Below are positions 694 through 60,499 of a stretch of 64,000 nucleotides of DNA, in pieces; the stretch's first letter is position 1, and the number at the start of each line of letters is the position of its first letter. The notes below the pieces were generated by a model, which saw only the letters and a program-made list of their open reading frames with translations, was not told the DNA's origin and did no database searches. The translations under genes and the position numbers were made by a program. The stretch is from Alphaproteobacteria bacterium (GTDB lineage Bacteria; Pseudomonadota; Alphaproteobacteria; Micavibrionales; Micavibrionaceae): assembly GCA_017302165.1 (NCBI GenBank), contig JAFLCW010000004.1:59834-123833 (forward strand), read 5' to 3'.

Positions 694-1355
694 GGTGCGC
701 TCTGTGACCAGAAATAATGATCCGCGCCTTTGAGGAAGTTCGCGTATTCCCCGGTCGGGAATTCATGATACGCTTTTTTAAAATCAATTGATTTCACAAT
801 ATCCTTGAACGACACCGCCCATTTTTCATACGCGTGATTAAGCGTGGAACATTCCAGCGCATAGAGTTTGTCATTATATAAGGACGCAAACATGATCGCG
901 CGGCGCGTCTGCATCACCGTGCCGCTATGGGTAGAATAACTGGCGAGCGCATAGGACGCATGCCAGCGCCCCAGCCCTGCCCCGTCATACACGCGGTCCA
1001 GTTGATATCCTTCATATTGCGCCAAGTAAGAATCCCAGAACGGCGCGCTCACGGCGGTTTTTTGAATATCGCGCCCGAAATCCGGCGGGTAGATCACAAA
1101 CCGTTGATCGGGGTGCACCCGCACCTTGCAGACGGGCTGGTCATGGTCTGACGGGGCGATGATGGTCAAAATATCTTCGGGTTTTTGGTTATGAACCACA
1201 TTCCATGTATCGGGAAATGACATGGTCAGGCCGCTTTTGGCATCCTGCCAGACGAAATAATCCGCCTGCGCCGAAACGGGCAACATCAGGACAAGGACGG
1301 CCATAAGGAATCTGATCATGGGCATGATTATAACCGCCAAAGCACAGCCGGGCAA
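672..1355 (-). CDS. Hypothetical secreted protein (N-terminal signal peptide)
   Basis: 227-aa ORF. The hydrophobic N-terminus [21 protein letters not shown] looks like a signal peptide. The track start is TTG; ATG at 1325 is an alternative. No recognisable domain. Confidence 0.6.
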
Positions 1356-1359
1356 ATCC

Positions 1360-2373
1360 TTAGGCGCGCCAGAACCCCATGATATCCATAGCGTTTTTCA
1401 AGATCGGCTCGGCGATCTCGTTGGCCTTGACGGCGGATGCCCCCAAAATACGATCCATTTCCGTAGGATCGGCCATTAATTCCCGCATGCGCCCGGTGAT
1501 GGGTGCCATGGTCGCCACCGTCAGATCAGACAGCGCATTTTTAAACGCCGAAAATTGTTGCCCGCCATATTCCGCCATCACCGCTTCGCGCGAGGTGTCG
1601 GACAAAGCGGCGTAGATGGTCAACAGATTGCGCGCTTCGGGGCGTCCTTCGCACTCTGCCTCGCTGGCCGGGACAAGTCCGGCATCGGTTTTGGCCTTTT
1701 TGATTTTTTGCGAAATCATGTCGGCATCATCGGTCAGGTTAATACGGGTCATATCGCTTTCGGCGGATTTACTCATTTTCTGAGTCCCATCACGAAGCGA
1801 CATCACGCGCGTTGCTTCACCCATGATGACGGGGTCTGGTACCGGAAAGAAATCACGCCCGGCAATATGCTGGTTGAATGAAATCGCGATATCGCGCATC
1901 AACTCCACATGTTGTTTCTGGTCATCCCCCACAGGCACATGGGTGGCATGATAGAGCAACACATCCGCCGCCATCAGCGTCGGATAAGTATAAAGCCCGG
2001 CGGACGCTTTTTCTTTATCCTTACCCGCCTTATCCTTGAACTGGGTCATGCGATTAAGCCAGCCCAGCGGCGTAATACAGGACAACATCCACCCCAATTG
2101 GGCATGGCCGGGCACGGATGATTGGGCAAAGATAATCGATTTTTCAGGATTCACACCCGCGGCGATATAGGCCGCGGCCACTTCGCGCGTGGCATTTTTT
2201 AACGTGCCGGGATTATATCCTGTCGTGTTGGCATGAAGATCGACAACACAATAGATACATTGTGTGCCGTGTTCATCTTGCATCTTCACCCAGTTCTTGA
2301 GTGCGCCCAGATAATTCCCCAACGTCAAACGGTTGGTGGGTTGCATGCCTGAAAAAATACGCTTCATGTTCAC
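1360..2373 (-). CDS. trpS: Tryptophan--tRNA ligase
   Basis: 337 aa with class I aaRS motifs (TLGNYLGA HIGH-like region and KMSKS) and overall TrpRS-like sequence. Confidence 0.95.
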   Translation of the reverse strand: MNMKRIFSGMQPTNRLTLGNYLGALKNWVKMQDEHGTQCIYCVVDLHANTTGYNPGTLKNATREVAAAYIAAGVNPEKSIIFAQSSVPGHAQLGWMLSCITPLGWLNRMTQFKDKAGKDKEKASAGLYTYPTLMAADVLLYHATHVPVGDDQKQHVELMRDIAISFNQHIAGRDFFPVPDPVIMGEATRVMSLRDGTQKMSKSAESDMTRINLTDDADMISQKIKKAKTDAGLVPASEAECEGRPEARNLLTIYAALSDTSREAVMAEYGGQQFSAFKNALSDLTVATMAPITGRMRELMADPTEMDRILGASAVKANEIAEPILKNAMDIMGFWRA

Positions 2374-2376
2374 TCT

Positions 2377-3924
2377 CTATTTCTTTTTAACAAGATATCT
2401 TTGAATATCGTGGATATTGAGCGCGCCGCTCAAGGCCACTGAGAGAATATAGGATACAAACCCCGATCCCACCAATACCCCCAGCGCACATAATTTATGG
2501 AGCGACGACATGTCATACATCGGTGCCACCACATGATTAACCCCGAACAAAACCCCGCCCATGACCAGTGCCGACAGCACAACACGCGGCAGGAATTGTT
2601 TCAAACGATCATCAAACTGGGCGGTCTCCATATCCTTGAGCCCCCGTTTCATCAGGATGAATTGAACCCATCCGGCAATCCCCGTGGCCAGCGCAATTCC
2701 CGCCACCCCCAGCCAGCCAATAAGTAGAAGTGCGAGCGCGATATTCAGAAGCGTGCAGAAAATCGCAATCTTGACCGGTGTCATCGTGTCCTGACGCGAC
2801 CAGAAGGCCGTGGAGAAAACCTTAATCGCAATATAAGCCGGAAGCCCCAGCGCATACCCCATCAGCACCTTGGCTGTCATGTCGGTATTCGTGGCGTTAA
2901 ATTCGCCACGTTCAAAAAGTACCTTGATGATGGGCTCTGCCGCCACAATCAAGGCGACCGCCGCCGGAAGCGCCAGTAAAAGGCTGATTTCAAGCGCACG
3001 GTTAAACAACATATGCGCTTCGGTTTTTTCGCCGCCCGCCAAAGCCTTAGAGAGCATGGGAAGCAAGGCCGTCCCCACGGCAATTCCCACCATGCCCAGC
3101 GGCAGTTGATTGAGACGATCTGCATAATACAAATATGAAATGGAACCCGCCGGAAGCCACGAGGCAATAATGAGATCAGCAAACAAGTTGATATGCACAA
3201 CCCCCGCCCCCAAAATCCCCGGCCCCATTAAAATGAAGAGTCGTTTTATATCGGCATCAAAACGGGGCAAGCGCAGATTAAATGAGATGTTCGCCCGGCG
3301 CATACAGGCAAACATCCATATTAATTGTACAACCCCAGCCGCAAACACCCCCCACGCCAGCGCATGCCCCGGTGTTTCCAATACCGGGGTAAAGACCACA
3401 ATACCGATCATCATGCACAAATTGAAAAAAATAGGCGCGGCGGCATACGGCGCAAACCGATCATGTGCGTTCATAACCCCGCCCAGTAAAGAGGTCAAAG
3501 ACATCAGCAGAAGATAAGGAAAAGTGATCCGGGAGAGTTCAACTGCGAGGTCATAGCGTACCTCGCCGTCATGAAACCCCGGTGCAATGGCATAAATCAC
3601 CCACGGCATGGCCAGCATGGCCAGCAACGTGAACGGCACCAGAAAAAGCAACATCATGGCAAAGGCATTGCCCGCGAAAGCATCCGCCGAGATATCGCCC
3701 TCTTTCTTTAATTTCTCAGCATAAATAGGCACGAAGGAAACGCTAAAGGCGCCTTCGGCCGTGATCCGCCGGAACAAATTGGGGAGTTTAAGCGCGACAA
3801 AGAACGCATCCGCAACTGGCCCCGCCCCCATAAGCGCCGCCGTTACCACGTCCCGGATAAACCCAAAAATACGGCTGATACCCGTTAATCCAGCCACGGT
3901 GGCCATTGCCTTGATCAATTTCAT
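2377..3924 (-). CDS. murJ: Lipid II flippase MurJ
   Basis: 515-aa polytopic membrane protein. N-terminus ...SRIFGFIRDVVTAALMGAGPVADAFFVALKLPNLFRR is typical of MurJ/MviN. Confidence 0.93.
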   Translation of the reverse strand: MKLIKAMATVAGLTGISRIFGFIRDVVTAALMGAGPVADAFFVALKLPNLFRRITAEGAFSVSFVPIYAEKLKKEGDISADAFAGNAFAMMLLFLVPFTLLAMLAMPWVIYAIAPGFHDGEVRYDLAVELSRITFPYLLLMSLTSLLGGVMNAHDRFAPYAAAPIFFNLCMMIGIVVFTPVLETPGHALAWGVFAAGVVQLIWMFACMRRANISFNLRLPRFDADIKRLFILMGPGILGAGVVHINLFADLIIASWLPAGSISYLYYADRLNQLPLGMVGIAVGTALLPMLSKALAGGEKTEAHMLFNRALEISLLLALPAAVALIVAAEPIIKVLFERGEFNATNTDMTAKVLMGYALGLPAYIAIKVFSTAFWSRQDTMTPVKIAIFCTLLNIALALLLIGWLGVAGIALATGIAGWVQFILMKRGLKDMETAQFDDRLKQFLPRVVLSALVMGGVLFGVNHVVAPMYDMSSLHKLCALGVLVGSGFVSYILSVALSGALNIHDIQRYLVKKK

Positions 3925-4052
3925 GAAAAGTCTTTACAACCTATATTGTGAAAGCGCGAGAATTATTCCTGATAAAAATATTGACATATATTTATGCACA
4001 TCGTCAGATAATTTTATACTTTTCTTCGATTTAATCTTATAAAAATGCATAC

Positions 4053-4805
4053 ATGACACAAAACCCCGAAAGCCAATGGTTTGGCACACACGCCGTGACG
4101 CCACGTGAAAAAACCCGAAAAGTGATCGGTGTTTTTGACTCTGTGGCCTCCAAATACGACCTGATGAATGATCTGATGTCGGGCGGAATCCACCGTGTGT
4201 GGAAAAACCATCTGATCCGACGTATCCGGCCGCGTGCGGGATATCATTATCTGGATGTGGCGGGCGGTACGGGCGATATTGCCTTTCGGATCCGTGAACG
4301 CACGGGCGGCAAGGCACACATTACACTCTGTGATCTCAACACAGAGATGTTGAGTGTCGGGAGAGACCGCGCGTTAAATAAAGGTTATGGAGATTTAAAT
4401 TGGGTAACGGGCAATGCTGAATCCCTGCCGATCCCGGATCAAACCATGGATGTGTACACCATTGCGTTTGGGCTTCGGAACGTCACGCATATTGATACTG
4501 CCCTTGCCGAGGCGTTCAGGGTTTTAAAACCCGGCGGACGTTTTTATTGTTTGGAATTTTCACAGGTACGCGACCCGTTAATGTCCAAAATATATGACAG
4601 TTTTTCCTATGGGATCATCCCCCGAATGGGAGAGATGGTGACCCAAGACCGCGAGAGTTATCAGTATCTGGTCGAGAGCATTCGGCAATTCCCCGCGCAA
4701 CATCAGTTGAAACGCCGGATGGAAGCGGTAGGATTTGCATCTTGCAGTTATGAAAATTTAACCTTCGGGGTCGCCTGCATTCATAGCGGGCTGAAGTCAG
4801 CGTAA
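4053..4805 (+). CDS. ubiE: Ubiquinone/menaquinone biosynthesis C-methyltransferase UbiE
   Basis: 250 aa. Contains VFDSVASKYDLMNDLMSGGIHRVWK and the SAM-binding motif LDVAGGTGD. Confidence 0.93.
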   Translation: MTQNPESQWFGTHAVTPREKTRKVIGVFDSVASKYDLMNDLMSGGIHRVWKNHLIRRIRPRAGYHYLDVAGGTGDIAFRIRERTGGKAHITLCDLNTEMLSVGRDRALNKGYGDLNWVTGNAESLPIPDQTMDVYTIAFGLRNVTHIDTALAEAFRVLKPGGRFYCLEFSQVRDPLMSKIYDSFSYGIIPRMGEMVTQDRESYQYLVESIRQFPAQHQLKRRMEAVGFASCSYENLTFGVACIHSGLKSA

Positions 4806-4992
4806 TACCCGCCTTTCGGCCTAGATTCTGACAAAATTATGGCTTATGCAAAAAGTTCTTGCCTTTCGCCCTATAACCTCATTATAAACGGTCTTGCTTT
4901 CATTAGGGCGATGACTTAATGGATCGGGGTCTTAACCGGACTCTCGCGTGGGCGATATCTGTTTAAACTTTAACATTAAGGGAACTTTCAAT

Positions 4993-5445
4993 ATGAATAA
5001 CATCGTAAAATCCGTCGCATTTGCCGCTGTCGTTTTGGTAGCTGGTATTGCGGCCATGCAATTCGTTTACAAAAACGTAACGGCAGATGAAGCCGCCAAC
5101 ATGGAGCCTGCCGCTGGCGACGCCATGGCAACCACAGAAGGTGCTGTTGAAGGCGCCGTAGAAGCCACAGAAGAAGCCGCTGAAGAAGCAGGCGAAGTTG
5201 CCGCTGAAGCTGTTGATGCGACCAAAGAAGCCGCTTCTGATGCTGTTGATGCCGCGAAAGAAGCTGGTGCAGATGCCGCTGAAGCCGCTGGCGAAGCCAC
5301 AGAAAAGGCCAAAGAAGCCGTTGAAGGCGCTGTCGAAGAAGTTGCTCCGGCCGCTTCTGCTGAAACACCAGCCGCTGAAGCCACAGATGCCGCGAAAGAC
5401 GCCGCAACTGAAGCCGCTGACAAAGCCAAGGAAATGGCTGAGTAA
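4993..5445 (+). CDS. Membrane-anchored Ala/Glu-rich low-complexity protein
   Basis: ATG at 4993 is preceded by AAGGGA. It has one N-terminal TM helix (SVAFAAVVLVAGIAAMQFV) followed by about 110 aa of A/E/T/K repeats, and a strong terminator follows. The track's GTG start at 4948 is less likely. Confidence 0.6.
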   Translation: MNNIVKSVAFAAVVLVAGIAAMQFVYKNVTADEAANMEPAAGDAMATTEGAVEGAVEATEEAAEEAGEVAAEAVDATKEAASDAVDAAKEAGADAAEAAGEATEKAKEAVEGAVEEVAPAASAETPAAEATDAAKDAATEAADKAKEMAE

Positions 5446-5479
5446 TTACTCGCTTTTCTCTGATAAATTGAATAACATA

Positions 5480-5505
5480 AGCCCCGTTTCCACGGGGCTT
5501 TTTGT
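5480..5505 (+). terminator. Rho-independent terminator
   Basis: AGCCCCG-tttcca-CGGGGCT stem-loop followed by a T tract, directly after the Ala/Glu-rich ORF. Confidence 0.7.
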
Positions 5506-5517
5506 TTGGATAGATAT

Positions 5518-6738
5518 ATGCTGAAGGGCAAGACGATCCTATTGATTATTTCAGGCGGCATTGCGGCCTACAAGTCGCTGGAGCTGATCCGTCTGCTCAA
5601 AAAATCAGACGTAGCCATCAGATGTATTCTCACAGCAGGCGGACAGAAGTTCATTACACCTTTGAGTGTTGCATCATTATCCGAACATCCCTGTTACACA
5701 GATTTATGGTCGCTGACCGATGAAACAGACATGGGTCATATCCGCCTCTCCCGAGAGAGCGACCTGATTGTCGTCGCCCCCGCGAGTGCCAATATCATCG
5801 CCCGGATGGCACAGGGTATGGCCGATGATCTGGCCACGACCACCCTTTTAGCGAGTGATAAAAAAATCATGTTATTTCCAGCCATGAACCCGCTGATGTG
5901 GTCGAACCCAGCCACGCAGGCCAATATTGAAACTCTGCGGGCCCGGGGCGTGATTATCATTGACCCGGCACAAGGAGATATGGCCTGCGGGGAAACCGGT
6001 ACTGGACGCCTGCCCGAAGCGACAGAGATGATAGCTACGCTGAACACATTTTTTGATAAAAAAAAAGCCTTAAGCGGATATAAAGCCTTAGTCACGGCGG
6101 GTCCAACGCACGAACCGCTGGATCCCGTGCGATATATTGGGAACAGATCTTCCGGCAAACAGGGATATGCCATTGCCCAAGCCCTCGCGGATGAAGGGGC
6201 TGAAGTCACGTTAATCTCAGGCCCCACCTCTCTCACGCCGCCCCCGGGCGTCACCTTCATCTCTGTGGAAACGGCGCAGGAGATGATGTCGGCGGCGCTT
6301 AATACCCTGCCCTGTAATATCGCGGTGTGTACAGCGGCAGTTGCTGACTGGCGGCCTGACGTCATGGCCTCACAGAAAATCAAAAAACAGGAAAACACAC
6401 CCCCCCAGCCTCTCACCCTTGTTGAAAATCCTGATATTTTAAAAACAATTTCAACTCATCCGGCTCAACGGCCAGCACTGGTGGTGGGCTTTGCCGCGGA
6501 AACGGATCAGGTTATCCCCCATGCCCAGCACAAGAGGATTAGTAAAAAATGTGACTGGATTTTGGCCAACGATGTCACGCAAGATGTTTTTGGTACCGAT
6601 AATAATCAGGTCATATGGTGTCATGATAGCGGCGCAGAAACGTGGCCGAAGACACGTAAATCTGAGATCGCGCAAAAACTGGTAGAAAAAATCATCCTCC
6701 ATTTTTCTTCCTCTCACTCACGAAAGAAAGTCTCATGA
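5518..6738 (+). CDS. coaBC: Bifunctional phosphopantothenoylcysteine decarboxylase / phosphopantothenate--cysteine ligase
   Basis: Flavoprotein N-domain ([11 protein letters not shown]) plus a C-terminal CoaB domain. The ATG at 5518 is preferred over the TTG at 5506, which abuts the terminator. Confidence 0.93.
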
Positions 6739-9914: not shown

Positions 9915-10004
9915 GGAGAAGTGGCAGAGAGGCTGAATGCGCCGCACTCGAAATGCGGTATGCTCGCAAGGGCATCGGGGGTTCAAATCCCTCCTTCTCC
10001 GCCA
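9915..10004 (+). tRNA. tRNA-Ser (anticodon CGA)
   Basis: 90-nt cloverleaf read by eye: acceptor GGAGAAG/CTTCTCC, anticodon stem CCGCA/TGCGG with loop CTCGAAA, long variable arm, TTCAAAT T-loop, and encoded CCA. Confidence 0.9.
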
Positions 10005-10125
10005 TTAACTCATATTCAAACATCCAAAGACATTTAAGAAGATAGCAAAAATCAGTTGTATATACTGAATTTACAGTGTTTTTAGATATTTATACATCCA
10101 AATAAATTTATTGCAATCCAGCCCG

Positions 10126-10149
10126 TATATGCGTAGATTTATGAGTAGA
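10126..10149 (+). repeat. Island-left copy of an imperfect direct repeat (TATATGCGTAGA-N7-GTAGA)
   Basis: TATATGCGTAGATTTATGAGTAGA lies 12 nt upstream of the int ATG. It matches 17083-17106 at 18 of 24 positions, including a 12-nt exact block and the same 12-nt GTAGA spacing. Confidence 0.5.
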
Positions 10150-10160
10150 AAGGCGGGAAC

Positions 10161-11381
10161 ATGCCGCTAACAGAGCTTTCAATTAAAAGTCTTAAACCCA
10201 AAGCCAAACTGTATCGTGTGGCGGATTCCAACGGTCTTTGCCTAGAAATCACGCCTCAAGGTAATAAACTCTGGCGATGGCGGTTTTATCATCTGGGCAA
10301 GCCTCAAATGACCGCCCTAGGCAAATACCCCTATGTGTCTTTGGCTCAGGCACGAAAACTGAGGGATGAGGCCAGAGAAACCCTTAAATCAGGCAAGCAC
10401 CCTACCCTTGCCAAAAAAGCCCAAAAACTCCGCCGATCTCTTGAAGGGGCAAATACCTTCGAACGTATAGCGCGTAACTGGATGGAAAATAAGAAAAAGG
10501 GGCTAAATCCCAAATATGCCAAGCAGAGTCTTGAGCGATTAGAGCAACTTGTTTTCCCCATGATTGGCGCGTTACCCGTTACGGACATAACCATCCCTGA
10601 TGTTGTACGGGTGGTGGAACGCATTGGTAATCGTGGAACGATTGAAACGGCCAAGCGCATGAAGCAACTGATTGGCCAGATATTCCGCTACGCCGCACAG
10701 CGTGGCCTATGTGACCACAACCCTGCCGCTGACTTACGGGATATACTACCACCCAAAGAAGAAAAACATCACGCCTGTATTCCCTTGGCAGAATTACCCA
10801 CACTGTTACAGGCCATAGAAGGCCGTAAAAACGATTTCAGCAAATACGCCATGCAGTTACTTGCTTTAACTTTTGTCCGTACGGGGGAGCTAATAGGGGC
10901 AAAATGGGAAGAAATAGATTTTGAACGTGCTGAATGGCATATCCCCAAAGAGCGTATGAAAATGAAACGTCCACATTTAGTATCATTATCTAAGCAAGCC
11001 TTGGCTGTTTTAAAGGAATTACACAAAAAGACAGGAACAAAAACCCATATCTTTCACAGCCCCGCGAGTAAATCCATGCATATCAGCAATGGCACTGTTT
11101 TAATGGCCTTACGCCGCATGGGGTATCAAGGCCGCATGTCGGGGCATGGTTTTCGTACTGTTGCATCCACGCTTTTAAATGAAAAGGGCTATCCGCCTGA
11201 TGTTATTGAACGTCAACTTGCACATGAAGCAGAGGATAAAATTCGCGCCGCCTATAACCGCGCAGAATACCTATTAGAACGTAAAAAGATGATGCAGGAT
11301 TATGCGGATATGCTTGAAAAAATGAGAACTGCTAAAAATAAAGTGGTCAATCCAAGATTTGTTCAGGTTGGTGGCTCATGA
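10161..11381 (+). CDS. int: Tyrosine-type site-specific integrase (P4/CP4-57-like, DUF4102 N-terminal arm-binding domain)
   Basis: 406 aa. N-terminus LSIKSLKPKAKLYRVADSNGLCLEITPQGNKLWRWRFY. Catalytic region has ...RTGEL..., HGFR and ...LAHE...AYNRAEY (R-H-R-Y type). It sits next to a tRNA. Confidence 0.9.
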   Translation: MPLTELSIKSLKPKAKLYRVADSNGLCLEITPQGNKLWRWRFYHLGKPQMTALGKYPYVSLAQARKLRDEARETLKSGKHPTLAKKAQKLRRSLEGANTFERIARNWMENKKKGLNPKYAKQSLERLEQLVFPMIGALPVTDITIPDVVRVVERIGNRGTIETAKRMKQLIGQIFRYAAQRGLCDHNPAADLRDILPPKEEKHHACIPLAELPTLLQAIEGRKNDFSKYAMQLLALTFVRTGELIGAKWEEIDFERAEWHIPKERMKMKRPHLVSLSKQALAVLKELHKKTGTKTHIFHSPASKSMHISNGTVLMALRRMGYQGRMSGHGFRTVASTLLNEKGYPPDVIERQLAHEAEDKIRAAYNRAEYLLERKKMMQDYADMLEKMRTAKNKVVNPRFVQVGGS

Positions 11382-11995
11382 CAGTAAAATCCCCAAACAG
11401 AAAAGTATTTAGCTGGTCTGGAATAGGTACAAAAAAATTTGAAATATCCGAAGACAATTTTCAGAAAATTGAAAAGCAATCCAAAGTGAGGCTATTAAAA
11501 AAGCAAAAAAACAAGATCAATCGTATATTATTTGACCGTTCTGTAGAAATTGGCAGAGAAAAAAACGCACCCACGAGAGGAGATATTTTCTCAGAATTGG
11601 AAATCATTATAAAATCTATGGACAACATAGCTAAGGTCTTTGGTGTCGATACAGGAACAAAAGTTAAAAATAAGAAAGCTAAAGAGAATTTAAGAACACT
11701 TATTGAGGTTAATAAATACCCCAATTTAGATTTAGAGAGAATGCTATGCGACCTCTTGATAACGAGTGCAATTTGTCAAAATATCAAAAATGATTTTTCT
11801 CGTGATGATTTACAAGATCATGGGGGAAGAAATACGAATCCTATGATTAGCGAATTAATTAGCATTATAGGCTCTGATCCGCCTATAAAAACTATCGATA
11901 AATTTTTATCAGAGCTGAATAAAAAGATACCCAAAGAATATAAGATTGAAATTCCTTCAATCGATGCGCTAAAAAAAATAAAGCAAAGACAATAA
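11378..11995 (+). CDS. Hypothetical Lys-rich protein, translationally coupled to int
   Basis: 205-aa ORF whose ATG overlaps the int stop (ATGA). AT-rich. No recognisable domain. Confidence 0.5.
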   Translation: MTVKSPNRKVFSWSGIGTKKFEISEDNFQKIEKQSKVRLLKKQKNKINRILFDRSVEIGREKNAPTRGDIFSELEIIIKSMDNIAKVFGVDTGTKVKNKKAKENLRTLIEVNKYPNLDLERMLCDLLITSAICQNIKNDFSRDDLQDHGGRNTNPMISELISIIGSDPPIKTIDKFLSELNKKIPKEYKIEIPSIDALKKIKQRQ

Positions 11996-12035
11996 AGGGA
12001 CATAACCCTAATTTTTTATATAGGGTTTTGTCCCT
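11996..12035 (+). terminator. Composite stem-loop after orf205 (possible terminator)
   Basis: AGGGACA-t-AACCCTA-attttttata-TAGGGTT-t-TGTCCCT begins 1 nt after the stop. There is no clear downstream T tract. Confidence 0.4.
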
Positions 12036-12075
12036 TCTAATCTCGTGCCAATGAAATCGTGATATGGCTTAATTA

Positions 12076-12097
12076 CTCCAGTTAACCCTAACTGGAG
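12076..12097 (+). promoter_or_regulatory. Perfect 9-bp inverted repeat overlapping the alpA ribosome-binding site
   Basis: CTCCAGTTA-accc-TAACTGGAG. The right arm contains the GGAG located 7-10 nt upstream of the alpA ATG (12104). Confidence 0.45.
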
Positions 12098-12103
12098 ATA
12101 AAG

Positions 12104-12295
12104 ATGAATATATTAAAACTTCCCAAAGTAATTGAAAAAACGGGGCTTTCGAGAGCCTCAATCTATGCGTTTGTTAAAGAAGGTAAATTCCCCAAACCAA
12201 TCTCACTGGGTCTTAGATCTGTGGGCTGGGTTGAAGTGGAAATTACGCAGTGGATAGAGGAGAAAATGAATAGCAGAATGGGGAGCATGTCATGA
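12104..12295 (+). CDS. alpA: AlpA-family phage/island transcriptional regulator (excisionase-like HTH)
   Basis: 63 aa. LPKVIEKTGLSRASIYAFVKEGKFPKPISLGLRSVGWVEVEITQWI is the typical AlpA/Phage_AlpA pattern. Confidence 0.8.
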   Translation: MNILKLPKVIEKTGLSRASIYAFVKEGKFPKPISLGLRSVGWVEVEITQWIEEKMNSRMGSMS

Positions 12296-12702
12296 TTGAC
12301 GAAGATAATTTGCCACATAGACAGTCATTGAAAGAACAACGCAGAGAAGCGTCAGCTCCCCATGATTACAAATTACTATTATCCAAGCATGACGGTTATT
12401 TGTCTCAGTGGTGGAATACACCTAAAGAGAAGGCAGACCTTAAAAACCCTGAATATCCAGCCATATATTTGATTACTGAGAGATATTTCAAAGACCTTAC
12501 TTCAGTTGGTCAAGGCTGGGAGTATGAAATAGAAGAATTATTAAGCGCAGTTCGTTTGCGCATGGTGAAATCTTCTAAATTGCCCTTAGACGCTATAATG
12601 ATCATGGCCGCACTTGAAAATGGGTGCTCTGTCCATGATTTTAACCGCGTACCTTTAAAAGGTTATATCAGATTTCCTAAAGTGGTGATCTCTCATGCCT
12701 GA
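12292..12702 (+). CDS. Hypothetical protein (island replication-module orphan)
   Basis: 136-aa ORF. It has an ATGA overlap with alpA and an 8-nt overlap with the downstream ATPase. No recognisable domain. Confidence 0.5.
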   Translation: MIDEDNLPHRQSLKEQRREASAPHDYKLLLSKHDGYLSQWWNTPKEKADLKNPEYPAIYLITERYFKDLTSVGQGWEYEIEELLSAVRLRMVKSSKLPLDAIMIMAALENGCSVHDFNRVPLKGYIRFPKVVISHA

Positions 12703-13840
12703 AAAGTTAGCACCCGTGGCACATTGTAAAAAGTGCTTTTACTGCTATATACCAGCCCCTAAATGCCCCAATTGTGGAGAAAAAAATGTAGATTTTGTGC
12801 CAAGTAGATTACATCCATACCACATCGCGGAACTACACACCCTTCCTAAAAGAACATATCTGATTAAAGGCTTACTTGACTGCAATGCTTTAAGCGTTGT
12901 GTTCGGGGAGTCAAATTCAGGCAAGACTTTCTTTGTTATTGATCTGGCCTTAACCTTAGCTCTGGGGTGGCCGTGGCAAAGCCATAAGGCCAAACAGGGG
13001 GCGGTTTGCTATGTGGCCGCCGAAGGGGGCTTAGGATTAAAAGAACGATTAGATGCTTTTTTTCTGCACCATGAAATCAAGCCCCATATCCCATTTTACC
13101 TTATCCCTACGGGGGTGGATTTGCTGAATACCAATGGTGATACAGAGGAGCTTATTCAGCATATCTCGACTATCAAAAACTTAAAGATGGTTGTGATCGA
13201 TACCTTAAGCAGAGCAATGGCGGGAGGTAATGAAAACAGCCCAGAAGACATGACCGCCTTTATCCATAACTGTGATGAGATTAGGGAAGCCACAAGGGCG
13301 CATGTTTTAATTGTTCACCATTCAGGCAAAGATAGAGAGCGAGGCGCAAGAGGGCATAGCGCACTCAAGGCCGCCGTTGATACAGAAATTGAAGTGATAC
13401 AAACCGATGGCATTATTACCGCAGAGGTTAAAAAGCAACGTGATGGTAAAACAGGCCGTAAATATAACTTCACCCTGAATCCTATCGAAGTAGGCAAAGA
13501 TGAGGATGGCGATAAAATCGTATCCTGTGCCCTTATAGCTTCAGAGGCACAAGCCACCCCACGCCGTAAAATCAAAGGCCAGAAGAAAAGAGCGTTAGGA
13601 ATTATTCGGGATTGTATATCGGATAAAGGTCAAGTTAGACACGTTCGGCAGGAAATGCGTGCCGTGATGTGCATTTCCTTGGATGAAGCCAGAGAAGCTC
13701 TAAAGAGGGGCAACATTTCTGCGGCGGAAAAAGCGGATGATATTCGCAGAAGCATAAGCAAAGTGATAACAGAGCTAAATGACATAGGCGTTACAGTAAG
13801 TTACGGGGATTATATATGGCTTTCGGAACAAACGGATTAA
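12695..13840 (+). CDS. Zinc-ribbon + RecA-like ATPase (AAA_25 / RepA-type replication protein)
   Basis: 381 aa. N-terminal CKKC...CPNC, Walker A GESNSGKT, Walker B-like MVVIDTL, then ...VLIVHHSGKD...RGHSALKAAVDTEI, as in RepA/AAA_25 proteins of plasmids and islands. Confidence 0.7.
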   Translation: MPEKLAPVAHCKKCFYCYIPAPKCPNCGEKNVDFVPSRLHPYHIAELHTLPKRTYLIKGLLDCNALSVVFGESNSGKTFFVIDLALTLALGWPWQSHKAKQGAVCYVAAEGGLGLKERLDAFFLHHEIKPHIPFYLIPTGVDLLNTNGDTEELIQHISTIKNLKMVVIDTLSRAMAGGNENSPEDMTAFIHNCDEIREATRAHVLIVHHSGKDRERGARGHSALKAAVDTEIEVIQTDGIITAEVKKQRDGKTGRKYNFTLNPIEVGKDEDGDKIVSCALIASEAQATPRRKIKGQKKRALGIIRDCISDKGQVRHVRQEMRAVMCISLDEAREALKRGNISAAEKADDIRRSISKVITELNDIGVTVSYGDYIWLSEQTD

Positions 13841-13884
13841 ATCGGACGGAACAGAATTTAGTAAACGCCACAACAGGAAAGGAT

Positions 13885-13910
13885 AGGATCACCCCCTATA
13901 GGGTGATCCT
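13885..13910. repeat. Perfect 10-bp inverted repeat (hairpin) between convergent island operons
   Basis: AGGATCACCC-cctata-GGGTGATCCT, 45 nt after the ATPase stop. A second hairpin, CCACCCC...GGGGTGG, lies at 13938-13967. Confidence 0.45.
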
Positions 13911-14131
13911 TGATCCTGATGGTAAATTCAAAAAACACCACCCCGTCACCCCCAAAGGTAGGGGTGGGTTATTTAAAAATGGATAAGTAAGAAATTTTGG
14001 TAACTTTTGAATTCTAAGATTATTGTTATTTTCAAAAATCTGAAGAAACTTATAAAGAAGATAAAGGGTCAATAAGTTTCTATTGTATTTATTACCTTCG
14101 CAAAAAAATACGCCATCTTTTCATTTATTTT

Positions 14132-14950
14132 TTAGTGATGCGAAGCATTTTTAATTAGGGAAGGCAGTTGCGTAGCGTCTTCCTCTGTAATTAAAGTTGC
14201 ATGTTTGTCTCTCCGTAACAAAGCACATGCGTTTTCATATGATGATATAAGCTCTTCTTTGCCAGGGCGACCAACTAAAAAATAAAATTTAAATTGCTTA
14301 TCAGGGTTATTTTCTTCAATAGCATCGTGCCAGCCTTTGGTTTTATACACCTTCTCTAAGATCATATCTTCATTTGTCATGTCTAAAGAGATGGGTTTTA
14401 GGCAATGTAACGAACCGTTTTGATAGGCATATGGTATTTCAGCACTAAAACCTTCGAGGTTTATGTGCATCGGTTTAAACCAGTCTAACATTTGCCGCTG
14501 TTGAAGCTCTTTTTTGAATGTAGCCCAAACGGAGCTATCGGGTCGATGATTGGTTTTCTCTAGTTTTCTAGAGCAGACAAATCTGTCCATAAGATATTTA
14601 TATATCTCATTGAGATCATCCGCATATCCAGAGCCTTGCTTGCCCCATTGCACAGAGCTGGCATCATGTGGAAGTAGCTTTATGGAGTAATCGTCTACTT
14701 CAGAGTGAATAGCAAGCTGAGTTCTATAAAGAATTTGATATTCTTCTATGCTCTTGCAAATGTTGTCTAAGTATTTTTTAAGATGCTTCTGGCTAAAGTC
14801 AGGAAATATAGCTTTCAAAGCCCCTAAATCTGGGCGTATACCAAACCGAACCATTTTGGCTTCAGGAGAATAAAATAAAATGCCCACATTAACGCTCTCA
14901 TTTCTGAGGGTATCGTGTATGTAGTTTAATAATTTATATTCGTATTTCAT
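14132..14950 (-). CDS. DUF3037-family protein (function unknown)
   Basis: 272 aa. I recognise the N-terminus KYEYKLLNYIHDTLRNESVNVGILFYSPE as the DUF3037 signature (Y-x-hydrophobic...E-x-hNhGhhh). The ATG shares one base with the upstream kinase stop (TAATG). Confidence 0.6.
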   Translation of the reverse strand: MKYEYKLLNYIHDTLRNESVNVGILFYSPEAKMVRFGIRPDLGALKAIFPDFSQKHLKKYLDNICKSIEEYQILYRTQLAIHSEVDDYSIKLLPHDASSVQWGKQGSGYADDLNEIYKYLMDRFVCSRKLEKTNHRPDSSVWATFKKELQQRQMLDWFKPMHINLEGFSAEIPYAYQNGSLHCLKPISLDMTNEDMILEKVYKTKGWHDAIEENNPDKQFKFYFLVGRPGKEELISSYENACALLRRDKHATLITEEDATQLPSLIKNASHH

Positions 14951-15774
14951 TACGCTTTACCTATTATCCTCTTTATTTCCGTAATGCAATCATTTATATT
15001 ATTTCTTACATCAATAATATGTTGCAAAATTAGTACCACACAAGAGTTGTTGTCGTTAGCCCATTGTGAAGGCAGACAGTTGCCATATTCTAGAATCCGT
15101 TCGTCAGTTAGGTTTGCCCAAAGAGACGAAAATTCAGACATATCAATCTTACTGGAATTTTTTAAAATTTGGTTAATGAACAGGTGTGAGCCGGATGTTC
15201 GATATTTTTCTAACGCTCCAACTTCCCATGGATTTTTCCTTCCTAGGATTAATAAACCCATTGCCATAGGAAAGGCTTTCTCGTGATCTATAATGCTAAT
15301 AATGTCTCCATTCAGAAGACAATTAGCCTTGCCTGCGCCGCCACGATCATAATTTTCTATCAGTGCATCGAAAGCGAAGATGTTGCCTGCGCTTCGAAGT
15401 TGGCAGGCCGTTAGAGGCATATCGGTAGTAGGCACTTTTGCTGATGGCGGTAATGCCTGTGTAGCAAATACTACTCTGGCACTACTTTCTAGTCGTTTGC
15501 GAATGTTGACGTCTGCCACAGAGGCTATAAAATTATCATCTATAGTTACTGCAAATGACTGAGGTGTATGTAAGCCTAGATCGGCGGCAAGCAGGGAGGC
15601 GATAGCTTCTGCCGTGTACCCTTTAATGCCAGTATGAAGTTTATCTGATAGTTTGGCATATACATCAAATAGCTCTCCGTCAGCCTCAGCTCTGACAACG
15701 ATCATCAATGGTTCGCTTGCACCAGACAAACTAGGCACAACGCCGTTATAACCTACGGCCTTAGCTGTCTTCAT
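14950..15774 (-). CDS. Short HipA-like (protein-kinase-like fold) kinase
   Basis: 274 aa. Contains DVYAKL (candidate ATP-binding Lys), FDALIENYDRGGAGKANCLL (catalytic-loop D...N) and SIIDHEKAF (metal-binding Asp). AGGGG RBS lies 7 nt upstream. It lacks a HipA N-terminal subdomain. Confidence 0.55.
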   Translation of the reverse strand: MKTAKAVGYNGVVPSLSGASEPLMIVVRAEADGELFDVYAKLSDKLHTGIKGYTAEAIASLLAADLGLHTPQSFAVTIDDNFIASVADVNIRKRLESSARVVFATQALPPSAKVPTTDMPLTACQLRSAGNIFAFDALIENYDRGGAGKANCLLNGDIISIIDHEKAFPMAMGLLILGRKNPWEVGALEKYRTSGSHLFINQILKNSSKIDMSEFSSLWANLTDERILEYGNCLPSQWANDNNSCVVLILQHIIDVRNNINDCITEIKRIIGKA

Positions 15775-16094
15775 TTATTACCCCTAAATTAAATTTATCT
15801 ACTCTTTCTAGTAGTATCCTAAATCATATTAATTTGAATGAGTGTTCTTAAACAGATACGGGTTATTATATTATATAGGAACAATGTTGTTGTACAAATA
15901 GAGAGGGGATTAAACTAACCGATTGAAACAATTGTTATCTGGCGCAAAAAAATAGATTCACAAGCGTATTAACCCATAAAATCTTCTCTCTTTAGACCGT
16001 CGATCAGGATCAGCCTTGAAATTGATGCGTGCCCCCCCAGATCATGTTGGGGCGTATGATTGAGAATATTGTATTAATATGATACAGTACCTTT

Positions 16095-16514
16095 GTGAGT
16101 AATATATTAGAAGCTATAGTTGATACACAGCCTAGTTTTAACAAAGGTATGGGAAGGCCTCCCATTCTTTTCTCAAATGCCGACTGGCAAAATATTGAAA
16201 AACTCTGCTCATTAATGTGTACAGCCGATGAAATTGCCTTCTTTTTAGGCATTAGTATTGACACTCTATCCCGTCGCATTACAGAAACCTATGGATGCAC
16301 TTTTGCGGACTACCATAAAAAGCATATTGTGAGTGCAATTATCTCCCTTCGCCGCGCTCAATGGAAAAATGCCATGAAAGGCAATGCAACCATGCAAATT
16401 TGGTTAGGTAAGCAGTATTTAGGGCAGAAAAACAACATGGATTTAGTAGTCGCCACCTCTCCCATGGAAGGCTTAAAAAAAGCATGGGCGTGTGTAGAGG
16501 AAGATTTAAAATAA
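16095..16514 (+). CDS. HTH protein resembling phage terminase small subunits
   Basis: 139 aa with a GTG start. GRPPILFS...IEKLCSLMCTADEIAFFLGISIDTLSRRI (HTH) followed by ...RAQWKNAMKGNATMQIWLGKQYLGQKNN, a pattern I associate with terS-like proteins. Not verified by search. Confidence 0.45.
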   Translation: MSNILEAIVDTQPSFNKGMGRPPILFSNADWQNIEKLCSLMCTADEIAFFLGISIDTLSRRITETYGCTFADYHKKHIVSAIISLRRAQWKNAMKGNATMQIWLGKQYLGQKNNMDLVVATSPMEGLKKAWACVEEDLK

Positions 16515-16546
16515 GGTCAAATTAGTAAAATGTCCTATACTACAAC

Positions 16547-17002
16547 TCATTGGTAAGATGTATCTTGAAATGGATCTAAGGATATCTTTATATCTTCTCC
16601 ATCTTTAGTGATGGGCTTTATTTTTATAAGATTACGAGGATCTATCGCATTCTTTTCAGGGATAGATATACCCATACTACAGCTATAACCTCTATTATGC
16701 ATTTTTTGCCAAATCTCATGTCTTTCATTCCATAGGCGCTTTTCGCGATCTCTTTGGCTATAGTGGTATATTCCAAAACCTATAAAAATAATCCATGTGT
16801 ATAAGTATGCTGATTCTATAAAAAGTGGCTTATCAAAAATTGAGAAAAAAGCAGGGAATGCTGAGAAAAACCAAGCAAGCTTCATGTTTGTTTCTCTTTT
16901 AGAAATCCTATGTAATGAATAAGATATTTCAATCATCTCTCTTAATTCATGTTGTATGAAATTCTTGTCTTGGATTGGAATTTTATATTCTTCTAATTGC
17001 AT
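16547..17002 (-). CDS. Hypothetical two-TM membrane protein
   Basis: 151-aa AT-rich ORF with hydrophobic segments LAWFFSAFPAFFSIF and AYLYTWIIFIGFGIY. No recognisable domain. Confidence 0.5.
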   Translation of the reverse strand: MQLEEYKIPIQDKNFIQHELREMIEISYSLHRISKRETNMKLAWFFSAFPAFFSIFDKPLFIESAYLYTWIIFIGFGIYHYSQRDREKRLWNERHEIWQKMHNRGYSCSMGISIPEKNAIDPRNLIKIKPITKDGEDIKISLDPFQDTSYQ

Positions 17003-17082
17003 TTTTGCTCAGTTAATCTGTTTATTGTGAATATCCAATATTATCCATTGATATATAACTGGAACATAAGAAAACCAAACAA

Positions 17083-17106
17083 TATATGCGTAGAAAAGCG
17101 TGTAGA
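17083..17106 (+). repeat. Island-right copy of an imperfect direct repeat (TATATGCGTAGA-N7-GTAGA)
   Basis: TATATGCGTAGAAAAGCGTGTAGA, in the same orientation as 10126-10149, about 45-100 nt inside the composition shift at the right island edge. Confidence 0.5.
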
Positions 17107-17208
17107 TTTTTAGCCGTGTGAACAAACACATAGACAATTTAACACTTACAAGGAAATGTTAGGCGGGCTCCTTCGCCACGGTCTAAATTTTTTACCGCCT
17201 TTAAGAAA

Positions 17209-17790
17209 TTATTTGTTCAACGCCCACCCGGCCAGGCTGGCGGCAATGCCAGATTTGATGACCGTGCCGATCAAGAACGGGACAACCCCGGCAGTCAAGG
17301 CCGCGGCCAGACCCATCTGTGGCAAGCCAAACGCCAGCCAGAACATCCCTGCCGACAAAATAACGGCATGCCCCGCCAGCATCAGCGCGCACAACATCGC
17401 CAAGGCCGCGAAGCCGCGCGCGTGTTGTTTGATATATGCGAACCCGTATCCGGTAACCATTACGGCCAGCACAAACCCGGCCAGATACCCGCCCGTGGGC
17501 CCCGCAAAATAGGCGAGCCCCGGCAGAGCCCCCGCCGTCATGGCAAACACCGGAAAGCCCATCGCGCCCAAGGCAAAATAAGAGCCCAGAACCGTCAGTG
17601 CCATCCGAAGCCCCAGCAGACAGGGCAGAAGCAACACGACCGCTGTTTGAAACGTTATGGGAACAGGGATCATCGGCACCTGAATCCTTGCAGAGACAAT
17701 CAAGGCCGCTATACTCGCGATCCCCATCATCACTTGGAAAAGAAAAGGTGTTTCTGTGATACGGTTTTTAAAAATTTGGGCGGTGGTCAT
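17209..17790 (-). CDS. bioY: Biotin transporter BioY
   Basis: 193 aa from ATG 17790 (AAGGAG RBS upstream). ...PITFQTAVVLLLPCLLG...GPTGGYLAGF... matches the BioY pattern. The 279-aa track ORF is an upstream over-extension. Confidence 0.88.
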   Translation of the reverse strand: MTTAQIFKNRITETPFLFQVMMGIASIAALIVSARIQVPMIPVPITFQTAVVLLLPCLLGLRMALTVLGSYFALGAMGFPVFAMTAGALPGLAYFAGPTGGYLAGFVLAVMVTGYGFAYIKQHARGFAALAMLCALMLAGHAVILSAGMFWLAFGLPQMGLAAALTAGVVPFLIGTVIKSGIAASLAGWALNK

Positions 17791-19960
17791 AACGGTCTCC
17801 TTATGCCCTTGGGTTTTATCAGTTTCTGCCGTCTCTGCCAAGCCGCAGAACACCGCGAGCCAAAAACCCCTGTATATCGAAGTGCGCCGCCTGCCCGAAC
17901 GGCCACAAGATGTCCCGGCCAGCGTGCTGGTGATATCGAGGGATAAGATTGAGACCCAAAAAATTGCGAGCCCAACCGACATCGCGGATTCCGTCCCCGG
18001 TTTTTCGTTTAACGACCCGTTCGGGCGGTTTAACCCCGCGCCGTCCATGCGAGGGTTGATCCAGCCCGGTTTGGGGGATGATCCGTCTGTTGGGTTTTTT
18101 ACCGATGGGCTTTATATGTCGGGGCGGAGTTCGATCAATTCACTGGCGTTTGATCTGGCGCAAATTGACGTCGCTAAAGGCCCCCAGAACGCCTTGTTTG
18201 GCCGGAACAGTTTCGGAGGCACCATCAACGCCGTATCCAACGCACCGGAAAAAACAACCTATGGCTGGCTAGAGGCCGTATCGGGCACAAAAGACCGCCA
18301 TGAAATCACCGTCGGCGTGAATATGAATTTTTCTGACACCTTACAATCCCGGCTGGCGGTCTATTGGCGGGACTGGGGTGGGTATTTTAAAAATGCGTTG
18401 GCCAGTGGCCCTGATATCGGGCGCGAAAAAACATCGGCGGTTAAATTATCCACGGCCTTCACACCCAATGACCGGCGTGAATTTAATCTCCGTCTGGCCT
18501 ATGCCGAAGATGACGACAGTCAGCCCAAGGGATTTTTGGTGGAAACGAATTGCGGCCCCCGCACGACAGACGGTGTTTTGCGGTTATATTGTGGTGAACT
18601 GCCGGAACGCGGAAGCCCCTATTCGGCCAACGATGTCGGCACCGAACAATCCATGGGATATCACCGTGAACACACGCGTGGATCGTTAGAGTGGACGGAG
18701 TTTTTATCGGCGCGCACATCCCTCACCACGCTTATCGGCGGCGCCTATGAAGATTCTGTCTTTATTCGGGATGATGATTATCAGGCCGTCAATTCGGCAC
18801 GCGCCGGGGTGGATACACGCCGCCATGACATTCAGGTTGATACACGCCTTCATACCAAAACCGCAAATGGGCAATGGTCAGGGTTATGGGGGGTCAGCGG
18901 ATATCATTTTTTAAATACCGCAAACCGAATTGATCAATTTTATGTTTTGGGGCAAACCACGCCCGGCGGTGCCCGCGTGCATAACGGCACAGATACGCTA
19001 GGGACATATGGAAGCGTGACCTACCGCGCTGTCCCACAACTCGCGCTGACGTTAGATGGTAGATGGCAGGTCGAGAAAAAATTCCTGGCCAGTTCCACCA
19101 TCGCCGCCAGCACCGGACGATCCATTGATCTGGAAGATAGCTGGCGCGGCTTTACGCCCAAATTCACCACCAGCTGGCAAAACCCCTCAGGCCTTTTATA
19201 TTACGGTTCCGTGGCCAAAGGATATAAAACCGGAGGATTTAATGACCGCGCGAATATCCGCGAAACCGAACGCGTCTATCAGCCTGAAGAAAATATTACC
19301 TATGAAGTGGGGATTAAAAATATCAAACCCATAAATCGTGTTTCGCTCGATATGGGATTATTCTGGATTGATTGGCAGGATCAACAGGTTCTGGCCTATT
19401 CCACCGCGGGCACCACGCAGAATTTCTTTTTGAACAATGCCGGACAAACGACCAGCAAGGGGCTTGAGGCCAGCTTGTCCTGGGACGTCACCGATCATTT
19501 GAATGTAACTGCCGGATACACCTATGCCGATGCACGCTATGACCAATATAACGATCCGGATTTGGCGAACGTAACGGGGTTTGCCCCGAACGGAAATGTG
19601 TCGGGTAAGCGGCTTCCGCGTTATTCCCCGCATCAGGCCGTGCTGTCAGGGTCGTACCGGACGCCGTCCCCCCTACCCCGGACAGATTTTGTTATAGGAT
19701 CACAACTCAAATTCGATTCATCCCAGTTCACGGATAATTCAAACACCGCCAAAACAGGGGCACGGACACTGGTCAACCTTCAGGCCGGGCTGGATCATCC
19801 AGAAGGATATGCAGGTCTATGGGTGAATAACCTTTTGGATGAACGCGATCCGTCGGTGGGTATTCCCTGGACGGACGCCTCGCAAGGGTTTCGCCGGGAA
19901 TGGCTGGTCGTGCCCGAAGACGGCCTGACGGCAGGCCTGCGGATTAAGGTTAAATTCTAG
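17756..19960 (+). CDS. TonB-dependent outer-membrane receptor
   Basis: 734 aa with a signal peptide (...SVSAVSA/KP), a plug region ([10 protein letters not shown]...VPGF...MRG), a long beta-barrel region and a C-terminal aromatic residue (...IKVKF). The start is uncertain because it overlaps the bioY 5' end on the opposite strand. Confidence 0.85.
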
Positions 19961-59587: not shown

Positions 59588-60499
59588 ATGGCTCCTTCAC
59601 CACGCGACGCGACCCCCCGACTTCAGGACGAACTGGATGAATGCGTTGAATCCGTCAACAAGACTATCACGCGTTTGCTCCCTGAAACGGATCTGGCCGA
59701 AGCCCATTTATTCGAAGCCATGCGCTATGGTGTGCTGAACGGCGGAAAAAGATTGCGGCCTTTCATGGTGCTTCAATCTTCGAAACTATTTAACGTTGAT
59801 CCGGCGCGGGCGCGGCGCGTGGCGGCGGCGGTTGAATTTCTGCATTGTTACTCCTTGATCCACGACGATCTTCCAGCAATGGACAATTCAGACCTTCGCC
59901 GGGGCGTCCCCACGGTTCACCGGAAATATGACGAAGCCACGGCTATCTTGTCAGGGGATGCCCTGTTGACGTTGGCGTTTGAGGTGTTGTCTGACCGCGA
60001 GACACATTCTGACCCGCATGTCCGGGTGGAATTGGTGCGCAAGCTGGCGATCGCCGCAGGCCCTAGCGGCATGGTGGGTGGTCAGATGCTCGATTTAATC
60101 GGCGAAGAACAGGAGTTTGATCTGGGCACCATCAGCCGTCTTCAACGCATGAAAACAGGACACTTGATGGCATTTGCCTGTGAGGCCGGCGCCATCCTTG
60201 GCAAAGCCGATGACGCGCATAAAAAAGCCTTGTGTAATTACGCCTATGATCTGGGATTAGCGTTTCAGGTAACCGATGACATTCTCGATGTTGACTCGAC
60301 ATCAACAGAGACCGGTAAGCCTGCCAATCAGGATGATAAGGCCGGAAAATCGACCTTCGTATCGACCATGGGAAAAGATCAAGCCAAGATGCGCGCAGAA
60401 ATGCTGGTGCATCAGGCCATTCGCCATCTGCATGTGTTTGAAAACCGGGCGGATACGTTAAAAGAGCTTGCACATTATGTGCTAAAACGCCGGGCATAA
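59588..60499 (+). CDS. ispA: (2E,6E)-farnesyl diphosphate synthase / polyprenyl synthetase
   Basis: First DDxxD region ([17 protein letters not shown]) and second (FQVTDDILD). Confidence 0.88.

Follow-up and report, generated by a model that had tools for sequence, protein, structure and literature searches.

We analysed a 64,000-nucleotide stretch of contig JAFLCW010000004.1 (forward-strand positions 59,834 to 123,833; hereafter the window), which belongs to the metagenome-assembled genome GCA_017302165.1, labelled Alphaproteobacteria, and focused on two adjacent minus-strand open reading frames (ORFs) that encode a short HipA-like kinase and a DUF3037-containing partner protein. Both ORFs begin with ATG, encoding 274 amino acids for the kinase and 272 for the partner, and the TAA stop codon of the kinase gene (14952-14950) shares one base with the ATG of the partner gene (14950-14948) to give the junction TAATG; a Shine-Dalgarno sequence, AGGGG (15781-15785), lies 6 nucleotides 5′ of the kinase start codon. 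The genes sit on a small low-GC island, where they converge with plus-strand genes for an integrase, an AlpA-type regulator and a replication protein (Table 1). A sequence-only reading of the window had described this arrangement and proposed that a translationally coupled kinase and DUF3037 protein form an uncharacterised toxin-antitoxin or anti-phage module carried as island cargo. The coordinates and the overlap proved to be exactly as described, the status of the pair as cargo of a mobile island was borne out, and the motifs on which the reading relied are all present in the translations (DVYAKL, FDALIENYDRGGAGKANCLL and SIIDHEKAF in the first ORF, and YEYKLLNYIHDTLRNESVNVGILFY in the second).

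Profile searches agreed with the proposed families for both proteins. The kinase matched the Pfam family HipA_2 (PF20613) above its gathering score (E=1.2e-12; 48.1 bits, cut-off 27) over profile positions 32-153 only, and the partner matched DUF3037 (PF11236), likewise above the gathering score and along the whole profile (E=2.3e-11; positions 1-118 of 118). The same two proteins matched a pair of models in the PADLOC database, the kinase PDC-M66A (E=5.3e-53; positions 23-269 of 270) and the partner PDC-M66B (E=9.1e-48; positions 3-273 of 281). Given these paired full-length matches, the genes belong to the two-gene candidate PDC-M66, a bioinformatic definition introduced in PADLOC-DB v2.0.0 (2023), and a standard PADLOC run would label the locus as such automatically. 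Both proteins also matched PHROG families of unknown function (phrog_3162 and phrog_5137), neither matched an NCBIfam model, and the PADLOC “embedded defences” preprint makes no mention of M66 or HipA.

The kinase has the residues expected of an active enzyme in a compact form. A HMMER search against 1.84 billion cluster representatives recovered 2,075 clusters (E<=1e-3), of which 296 reached E<=1e-30, and nearly all of the best 150 matches listed were 240-290 amino acids long; thus the short kinase is the family norm and not a truncation. It lacks the HipA N-terminal subdomain, its Gly-rich loop starting as early as residue 17. Across an alignment of 50 relatives with 26-88% identity to the window kinase, G18, K41, E56, F135-D136, N141, D143-R144, N151, D163, W183, H197, P235 and W238 were invariant, which argues that the kinase motifs did not arise by chance. 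From general knowledge of kinases, we take S17-G18...P22 to be the Gly-rich loop, K41 the ATP lysine, E56 the helix-C glutamate, D136/N141/D143-R144...N151 a catalytic loop of the form D-x4-N-x-D-R-x6-7-N, and D163-H164-E165 a metal-binding DHE motif that replaces DFG. The AlphaFold2 (AF2) model of the kinase had a mean predicted local distance difference test (pLDDT) score of 68.5 and a predicted template modelling (pTM) score of 0.71, with a poorly modelled N-lobe. Its best Foldseek matches in the PDB were PI4K-II alpha (E=1.3e-4), Helicobacter pylori CtkA and Escherichia coli HipA (template modelling score by query, TMq, 0.40-0.44; 0.43 for 3dnt), the matched HipA structures being 3dnt, 3tpv, 3fbr and 2wiu; a sequence search of the PDB detected no solved structure for the kinase.

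The partner is a two-domain protein. A profile search found 83 relatives, nearly all of about 280 amino acids and covering about 90-100% of the query, and DUF3037 was matched by all 79 members that were aligned. The AF2 model of the partner (pLDDT 91.4) resolves both domains, with most of the C-terminal part above 90. Its DUF3037 domain has the topology β3-α3-β-α and carries residues conserved family-wide (Y5, Y10, H12, E18, N21, the VGILF stretch at 22-26, and D96), and the C-terminal domain, which had gone unremarked in the sequence-only reading, has the topology α-β-β-β-α-β-α-β-α, an order that fits the core of PD-(D/E)xK nucleases. Searching the PDB with this model returned weak Foldseek matches (E=7e-3 to 0.1) to Can2/Card1, Shedu, XisH (template modelling score by target, TMt, 0.55), Mus81/XPF and BstEII, which nevertheless make up a coherent group of nucleases. 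In BFVD, uncharacterised phage proteins were matched over the full length (E=6e-11 and 3e-9), together with a DUF1828-domain protein and several endonuclease-like and restriction-endonuclease-like proteins; the nuclease matches in the two databases reach a TMt of 0.55-0.57 at most, with weak E-values. From the model, the C-terminal domain most likely adopts a restriction-endonuclease-like fold, as do DUF1828-DUF1829 proteins and the Can2/Card1, Shedu and XisH nucleases.

A phage DUF1828 domain-containing protein of 255 amino acids (BFVD A0A8S5NHZ2) aligns structurally with the entire partner model. The structural comparisons hint that proteins combining DUF3037 with this C-terminal domain and DUF1828-DUF1829 proteins share a two-domain architecture. 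DUF1829 was also considered at the sequence level for the partner C-terminus and rejected, being absent from the Pfam families listed for the 79 partners. Using tblastn, the partner had no match in phage records and three weak matches in plasmids.

Conservation within the C-terminal domain is concentrated in a small set of polar positions. Among the 79 aligned partners, position 138 is acidic in 79, K185 is present in 72, P186 in 75, S188 in 73, and D190, K200 and P229 in all 79. Judged by this conservation, the site formed by D/E138, K185-P186-x-S188-x-D190, K200 and P229 is a genuine functional site, which may bind DNA, the kinase or a metal. In the predicted secondary structure, D190 comes after strand 3 and K200 is part of the helix that follows; the residue two positions before K185 is variable. 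The partner thus departs from PD-(D/E)xK nucleases, whose canonical register (D on strand 2, (D/E)xK on strand 3) is not kept in its C-terminal domain; a shifted active site is possible.

To assess how constant the pairing is, we scanned 185,579 reference genomes with a kinase alignment, which yielded 183 relatives, and kept 80 loci, calling partners with hidden Markov models built from our own alignments. The loci come from Gamma-, Beta- and Alphaproteobacteria, Verrucomicrobiota, Nitrospirota and Hydrogenedentota. The partner gene lay directly downstream on the same strand in 79 of them, the exception being a kinase cut by a contig end, and 78 of the 79 kinase-partner junctions were 4-nucleotide ATGA overlaps. 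Close homologues of the two window proteins likewise co-occur on the same contigs, with the partner gene directly 3′. Kinase-first translational coupling is therefore a trait of the family that is close to universal: the gene order, which the sequence-only reading had noted as the reverse of hipBA, is real in 79 of 79 assessable loci, and its claim of coupling is borne out. The TAATG of the window is a minor variant in which the coupling is kept and the exact overlap varies.

Although the wider kinase-partner family is common in GTDB representative genomes, a scan of the 185,579 genomes with the alignment of the close subfamily gave no confirmed match to the window's own subfamily (at least 50% identity), which is thus absent from the GTDB representatives. 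We saw this subfamily only in a handful of metagenome contigs and one NCBI metagenome-assembled genome.

Comparison of flanking sequences indicates that the two genes move as a unit. Nucleotide similarity between the window and one homologous pair (L001, 82% identical) extends from 21 nucleotides 5′ of the kinase start codon to 22 nucleotides before the partner stop codon, and the integrase and neighbours of that pair differ from those in the window. As similarity is confined to the two genes, they form a cassette that has come to sit in more than one mobile backbone; as it stops 21 nucleotides 5′ of the start codon, the sequence upstream is part of the island rather than of the cassette. One close homologue is flanked on one side by an MmeI-type restriction-modification enzyme, a DEAD helicase and a T5orf172 protein, and on the other by a TIR protein, two copies of ThsB-TIR and a caspase-like peptidase. 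Other homologous pairs adjoin an integrase (one), a DNA methyltransferase (one), or HicA and RelB/PemK genes (one). Among 119 flanking ORFs from 16 reference loci, Type I restriction-modification subunits were the commonest (HsdR, HsdM and HsdS, about 6 each), followed by MmeI-type enzymes (2-3) and then integrases and transposases; having no background control, these counts describe an association and not a measured enrichment. Restriction-modification and other defence genes and integrases are thus common near the pair. Because Type I subunits are the commonest of the sampled neighbours, pairs of this type often appear to be appended to or embedded in Type I restriction-modification loci. 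A further observation concerns the reference loci L040, L045, L050 and L062 (~900-6001), and also L069 and L077, where an operon of three plus-strand genes ends exactly at the start codon of the kinase gene.

Two systems related to this pair have been tested experimentally, and the family is accordingly neither uncharacterised nor, for DUF3037, devoid of any assigned function, as the sequence-only reading had supposed: PADLOC has listed the candidate since 2023, and homologues were validated in 2025-2026. The Retron-Sda1 operon contains a HipA-like/DUF3037 pair that PADLOC calls PDC-M66, and its defence against phage Bas51 is independent of the reverse transcriptase and the non-coding RNA (PMC12548924, PLoS Biol 2025). 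Deletion of the kinase gene abolished this defence and deletion of the DUF3037 gene was toxic, which its authors read as a kinase toxin neutralised by the DUF3037 protein (PMC12548924). That pair lies beside a type III-A1 retron reverse transcriptase and non-coding RNA, whereas neither adjoins the pair in the window, and the C-terminus of its DUF3037 protein resembles the DNA-binding protein of the retron.

The second system, DS-6, which protects E. coli, was validated in the DefensePredictor study and renamed HipAD (PMC13092281, DeWeirdt et al., Science 2026), with independent discovery of HipAD credited there to Brenes and Laub 2025. In DS-6A, a kinase of the HipA family, the catalytic mutation D139A abolished defence, and DS-6B combines DUF3037 with a DUF1829-like region (PMC13092281). 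The published AlphaFold3 model of the DS-6A/B complex has an interface pTM of 0.76-0.79, with weaker predicted DNA binding by the B protein, and HHpred related DS-6B to DUF1829, of the PDDEXK clan, with a probability of 0.78 (PMC13092281). The latter, weak match agrees with the restriction-endonuclease-like fold that we assign to the partner C-terminus. On the minus strand of its source sequence, the DS-6 kinase occupies 2415..3164 and its partner 1591..2418, so that the kinase again comes first, with a 4-nucleotide overlap (PMC13092281).

Several comparisons tie DS-6 to the window pair. Both have the same two families, the same PADLOC pair, kinase-first order and overlapping stop and start codons, and DS-6A (WP_000389051.1, 249 amino acids) and DS-6B (WP_000210934.1, 275 amino acids) are close in size to the window proteins. 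In our searches DS-6A and DS-6B matched the PADLOC PDC-M66 pair (6e-15 and 3.8e-16), DS-6A matched the full HipA_2 profile (E=9.7e-77) and DS-6B matched DUF3037 (7.6e-24). DS-6A is thus a core member of HipA_2, in contrast to the partial match of the window kinase; the window-type branch lies at the centre of the PADLOC models, and the DS-6 branch at that of the Pfam HipA_2 model. The window kinase aligned with DS-6A at 24% identity over 225 amino acids (E=1e-6), placing D143 opposite the defence-essential D139, and hhalign matched the profile of the 79 partners to DS-6B with a probability of 94.6% over 239 columns that span both domains. The hosts differ, DS-6 coming from E. coli and the window from an Alphaproteobacteria-labelled metagenome-assembled genome. 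PDC-M66 itself shares with the window the two-gene order and full-length model matches, and differs in that the 4-nucleotide ATGA overlap is usual in the family, against a single shared base in the window, and in that its definition comes without a mechanism. Judged by sequence, the locus is a divergent copy of the already described PDC-M66/DS-6/HipAD defence system and not a new category.

The resemblance to HipBA and HipBST is more general, consisting of a HipA-like kinase fold, the logic of the catalytic loop and a co-encoded protein that would act as neutraliser. Canonical HipA is about 440 amino acids long, with N-terminal subdomains and HipA_C, whereas the 274-residue window kinase has HipA_2 only; in hipBA the antitoxin gene comes first and encodes HipB, an Xre-type helix-turn-helix protein, whereas the window partner is encoded downstream and has no helix-turn-helix match in Pfam.

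Taken together, these results make it likely that the locus encodes a two-gene kinase toxin-antitoxin module of the HipAD (PDC-M66, DS-6) type that acts against phages and is carried as a self-contained cassette on a tRNA-Ser island. This reading joins what our analysis established (membership of the family, catalytic residues that are intact, coupling and gene order that are conserved, and a mobile-element and defence-island context) to what published experiments on homologues have supplied, namely phage defence, its dependence on the catalytic Asp and the toxicity of the kinase when its partner is missing. The toxin-antitoxin and anti-phage idea put forward from the sequence is in agreement with those experiments (PMC13092281, PMC12548924). 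In such a module, a single mRNA and translational coupling would ensure that kinase and partner are made together, and the partner would bind the short HipA-like kinase and keep it inactive, perhaps also contacting DNA through its endonuclease-like C-terminal domain. Phage infection would then upset the balance between the two, and the released kinase, acting through K41, D143, N151 and D163, would phosphorylate an essential target, which could, if the analogy with HipA and HipT holds, be a component of the translation apparatus. The infected cell would cease to grow and the infection would abort. For the window locus, we infer the complex, the trigger, the target and this outcome.

Several points weigh against this interpretation. 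The relationship of the window pair to the validated systems is distant: the kinase shares 24% identity with DS-6A and the partner about 13% with DS-6B (in the 239 hhalign columns), and hhalign places a Thr of DS-6B at D190 and puts K200 in a stretch without matching residues. The N-lobe of the kinase model has a pLDDT below 50 for residues 1-47. Promoter-like matches upstream of the pair do not exceed the shuffled expectation, and the inverted repeats there (15786-15835) are AT-rich and imperfect (75-80% complementary), with no operator demonstrated. Lastly, the kinase target, the trigger and an abortive-infection outcome have not been established for the validated homologues (PMC13092281, PMC12548924).

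A module with the architecture of a toxin-antitoxin pair, sited on an integrative element with int and alpA, could also serve plain addiction, stabilising the island by post-segregational killing and having no anti-phage role. The homologous pair among HicA and RelB/PemK toxin-antitoxin genes would suit this, and toxicity upon loss of the partner, as observed in a homologue, is expected of any such pair. We regard pure addiction as unlikely, since phage defence was seen for two independent homologous pairs cloned off their native elements and the neighbours of the family are dominated by restriction-modification and other defence genes; addiction and defence are in any case not mutually exclusive roles.

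The fold of the partner raises the question of whether the roles are reversed or shared, with the C-terminal domain as an active nuclease effector and the kinase as a sensor, regulator or second effector. The best matches of this domain are defence-system nucleases of the PD-(D/E)xK type (Can2/Card1, Shedu, XisH, Mus81/XPF) and phage restriction-endonuclease-like proteins, and so strong a conservation of the acidic position 138, K185, D190 and K200 (72-79 of 79 members) speaks for a functional site and against a scaffold. The Foldseek E-values are weak, however (7e-3 or worse), the placement of D190 after strand 3 and of K200 in the next helix gives a non-canonical register, with the position two before K185 variable, and D190 is not conserved in DS-6B. 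Moreover, in homologues defence depends on the catalytic Asp of the kinase and the absence of the partner is toxic, for which reason we assign the role of toxin to the kinase and hold the reversed arrangement to be very unlikely.

A related possibility retains the kinase as toxin and gives the partner a second activity. Because D190 and, apparently, K200 are conserved in the window clade and unmatched in DS-6B, the C-terminal domain may work differently in the two clades, and the partner may be something beyond a passive antitoxin in this one. It might act as a nuclease, whether active as such or gated by a ligand, or it might sense DNA and release the kinase on engaging that of a phage, so that the module would have two activities; we give this idea little credence, though if true it would place a kinase-plus-nuclease defence module on a possible minimal phage satellite.

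The sequence-only reading had further suggested, by analogy with HipBST, that DUF3037 is a HipS-like copy of the missing HipA N-terminal subdomain that completes or inhibits the kinase in trans, which we consider extremely improbable: the kinase is indeed short and lacks that subdomain and the DUF3037 domain (about 120 amino acids) is comparable in size to HipS, but the list of the 25 most frequent Pfam families in the 79 partners (E<=0.1) contains no HipA N-terminal family, no HipS, HipT or HipA chain was among the 50 Foldseek PDB matches listed (obtained with the whole two-domain model, so that a weak match of the N-terminal domain could be outranked), and a profile run against every PDB sequence (E<=10) found no solved relative of the partner, from HipS, HipA, HipT or otherwise. 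In these three comparisons, the partner showed no relation to HipB or HipS, and a HipS-like origin of DUF3037 was rejected as unsupported.

Read as a HipAD-type module, the locus adds a divergent environmental example of HipAD/PDC-M66 in an Alphaproteobacteria-labelled genome and opens no new category of system. It also shows the two genes of the family moving together, as a tight cassette, among different mobile backbones and restriction-modification loci, and the survey and structure model sharpen the questions that attach to the family, namely the target of phosphorylation, the triggering event and the function of the partner's endonuclease-like domain. The residual interest of the locus lies in that domain and in the small carrier island.

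The island stands out by composition: from about 10,000 to about 17,100 the GC content is 0.33-0.46, whereas the flanks have about 0.52. Besides the genes in Table 1, it carries ORFs of unknown function encoding 205 amino acids (between int and alpA) and 136 amino acids (between alpA and the AAA_25 gene).

Table 1 Features of the island and of the kinase-partner pair in the window
Feature	Position	Strand	Basis or remark
tRNA-Ser	9915-10004		island edge
Low-GC integrative island adjoining tRNA-Ser(CGA), ~7 kb	10005..17150	.	GC, tRNA, Pfam, PHROGs
Tyrosine integrase (int)	10161-11381	+	Pfam
alpA	12104-12295	+	Pfam E=6.7e-24
AAA_25 primase/helicase-like replication gene	12695-13840	+	Pfam, PHROGs
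GC-rich hairpin with A-run and T-run flanks, between the convergent units	13930..13977	.	~160 nt downstream of partner stop
Two-domain partner, predicted antitoxin/regulator (PDC-M66B; DS-6B, HipD)	14132..14950	-	Pfam, PADLOC, hhalign
C-terminal domain of partner, probably restriction-endonuclease-like, aa ~137-270	14141..14542	-	AF2 model, Foldseek, conservation
N-terminal DUF3037 domain of partner, aa 5-125	14576..14938	-	PF11236
TAATG stop/start overlap	14948..14952	-	kinase-partner translational coupling junction
Short HipA_2-family Ser/Thr kinase, predicted toxin/effector (PDC-M66A; DS-6A, HipA of HipAD)	14950..15774	-	Pfam, PADLOC, conserved residues
Divergent intergenic region, presumed promoter of the pair	15775..16094	.	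sequence
Helix-turn-helix (HTH)/TerS-like protein, 139 aa	16095-16514	+	PHROG terminase small subunit, weak (E=4.8e-4)
151-aa ORF	16547-17002		island

An integrase, an AlpA-type regulator and a replication module at a tRNA site make up a gene set of satellite type, like that of phage-inducible chromosomal islands or minimal islands. The size and gene set of the island resemble those of minimal phage satellites, with a weak terminase small subunit (TerS) match as the only packaging match. This match belongs to the 139-amino-acid protein encoded divergently from the kinase operon, which also has phage relatives, namely a hypothetical protein of Psychrobacter phage pOW20-A (58% identity) and Pelagibacter podophage proteins annotated as “DNA-binding” (33-45% identity), and which may be an island regulator or a packaging-redirection gene. 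A 12-nucleotide exact direct repeat, TATATGCGTAGA (12-13 nucleotides), occurs near both island edges, at 10126-10137 and 17083-17094, and is a candidate attachment-site (att) core that could also be a chance match; its first copy lies about 120 nucleotides downstream of the tRNA and outside it, and no repeat of the 3′ end of tRNA-Ser was found.

The promoter of the pair and any operator would fall within the divergent intergenic region, which holds no same-strand ORF upstream of the kinase gene and has a weak -35/-10 match on the minus strand (15851..15823). Between the convergent units, a terminator-like site was called on the plus strand at 13946-13967, and RNA of the minus strand forms this hairpin too, with U6 after it, making a bidirectional intrinsic terminator plausible; the folding energy of the whole 91 nucleotides is not significant relative to shuffled sequences (z = -1.2). 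Beyond the island, a BioY-family ORF (17209-18048, minus strand; Pfam E=2.3e-27) overlaps the ORF of a TonB-dependent receptor (17756-19960, plus strand) by about 290 nucleotides, and the true start of the receptor probably lies further downstream than the mechanically called GTG.

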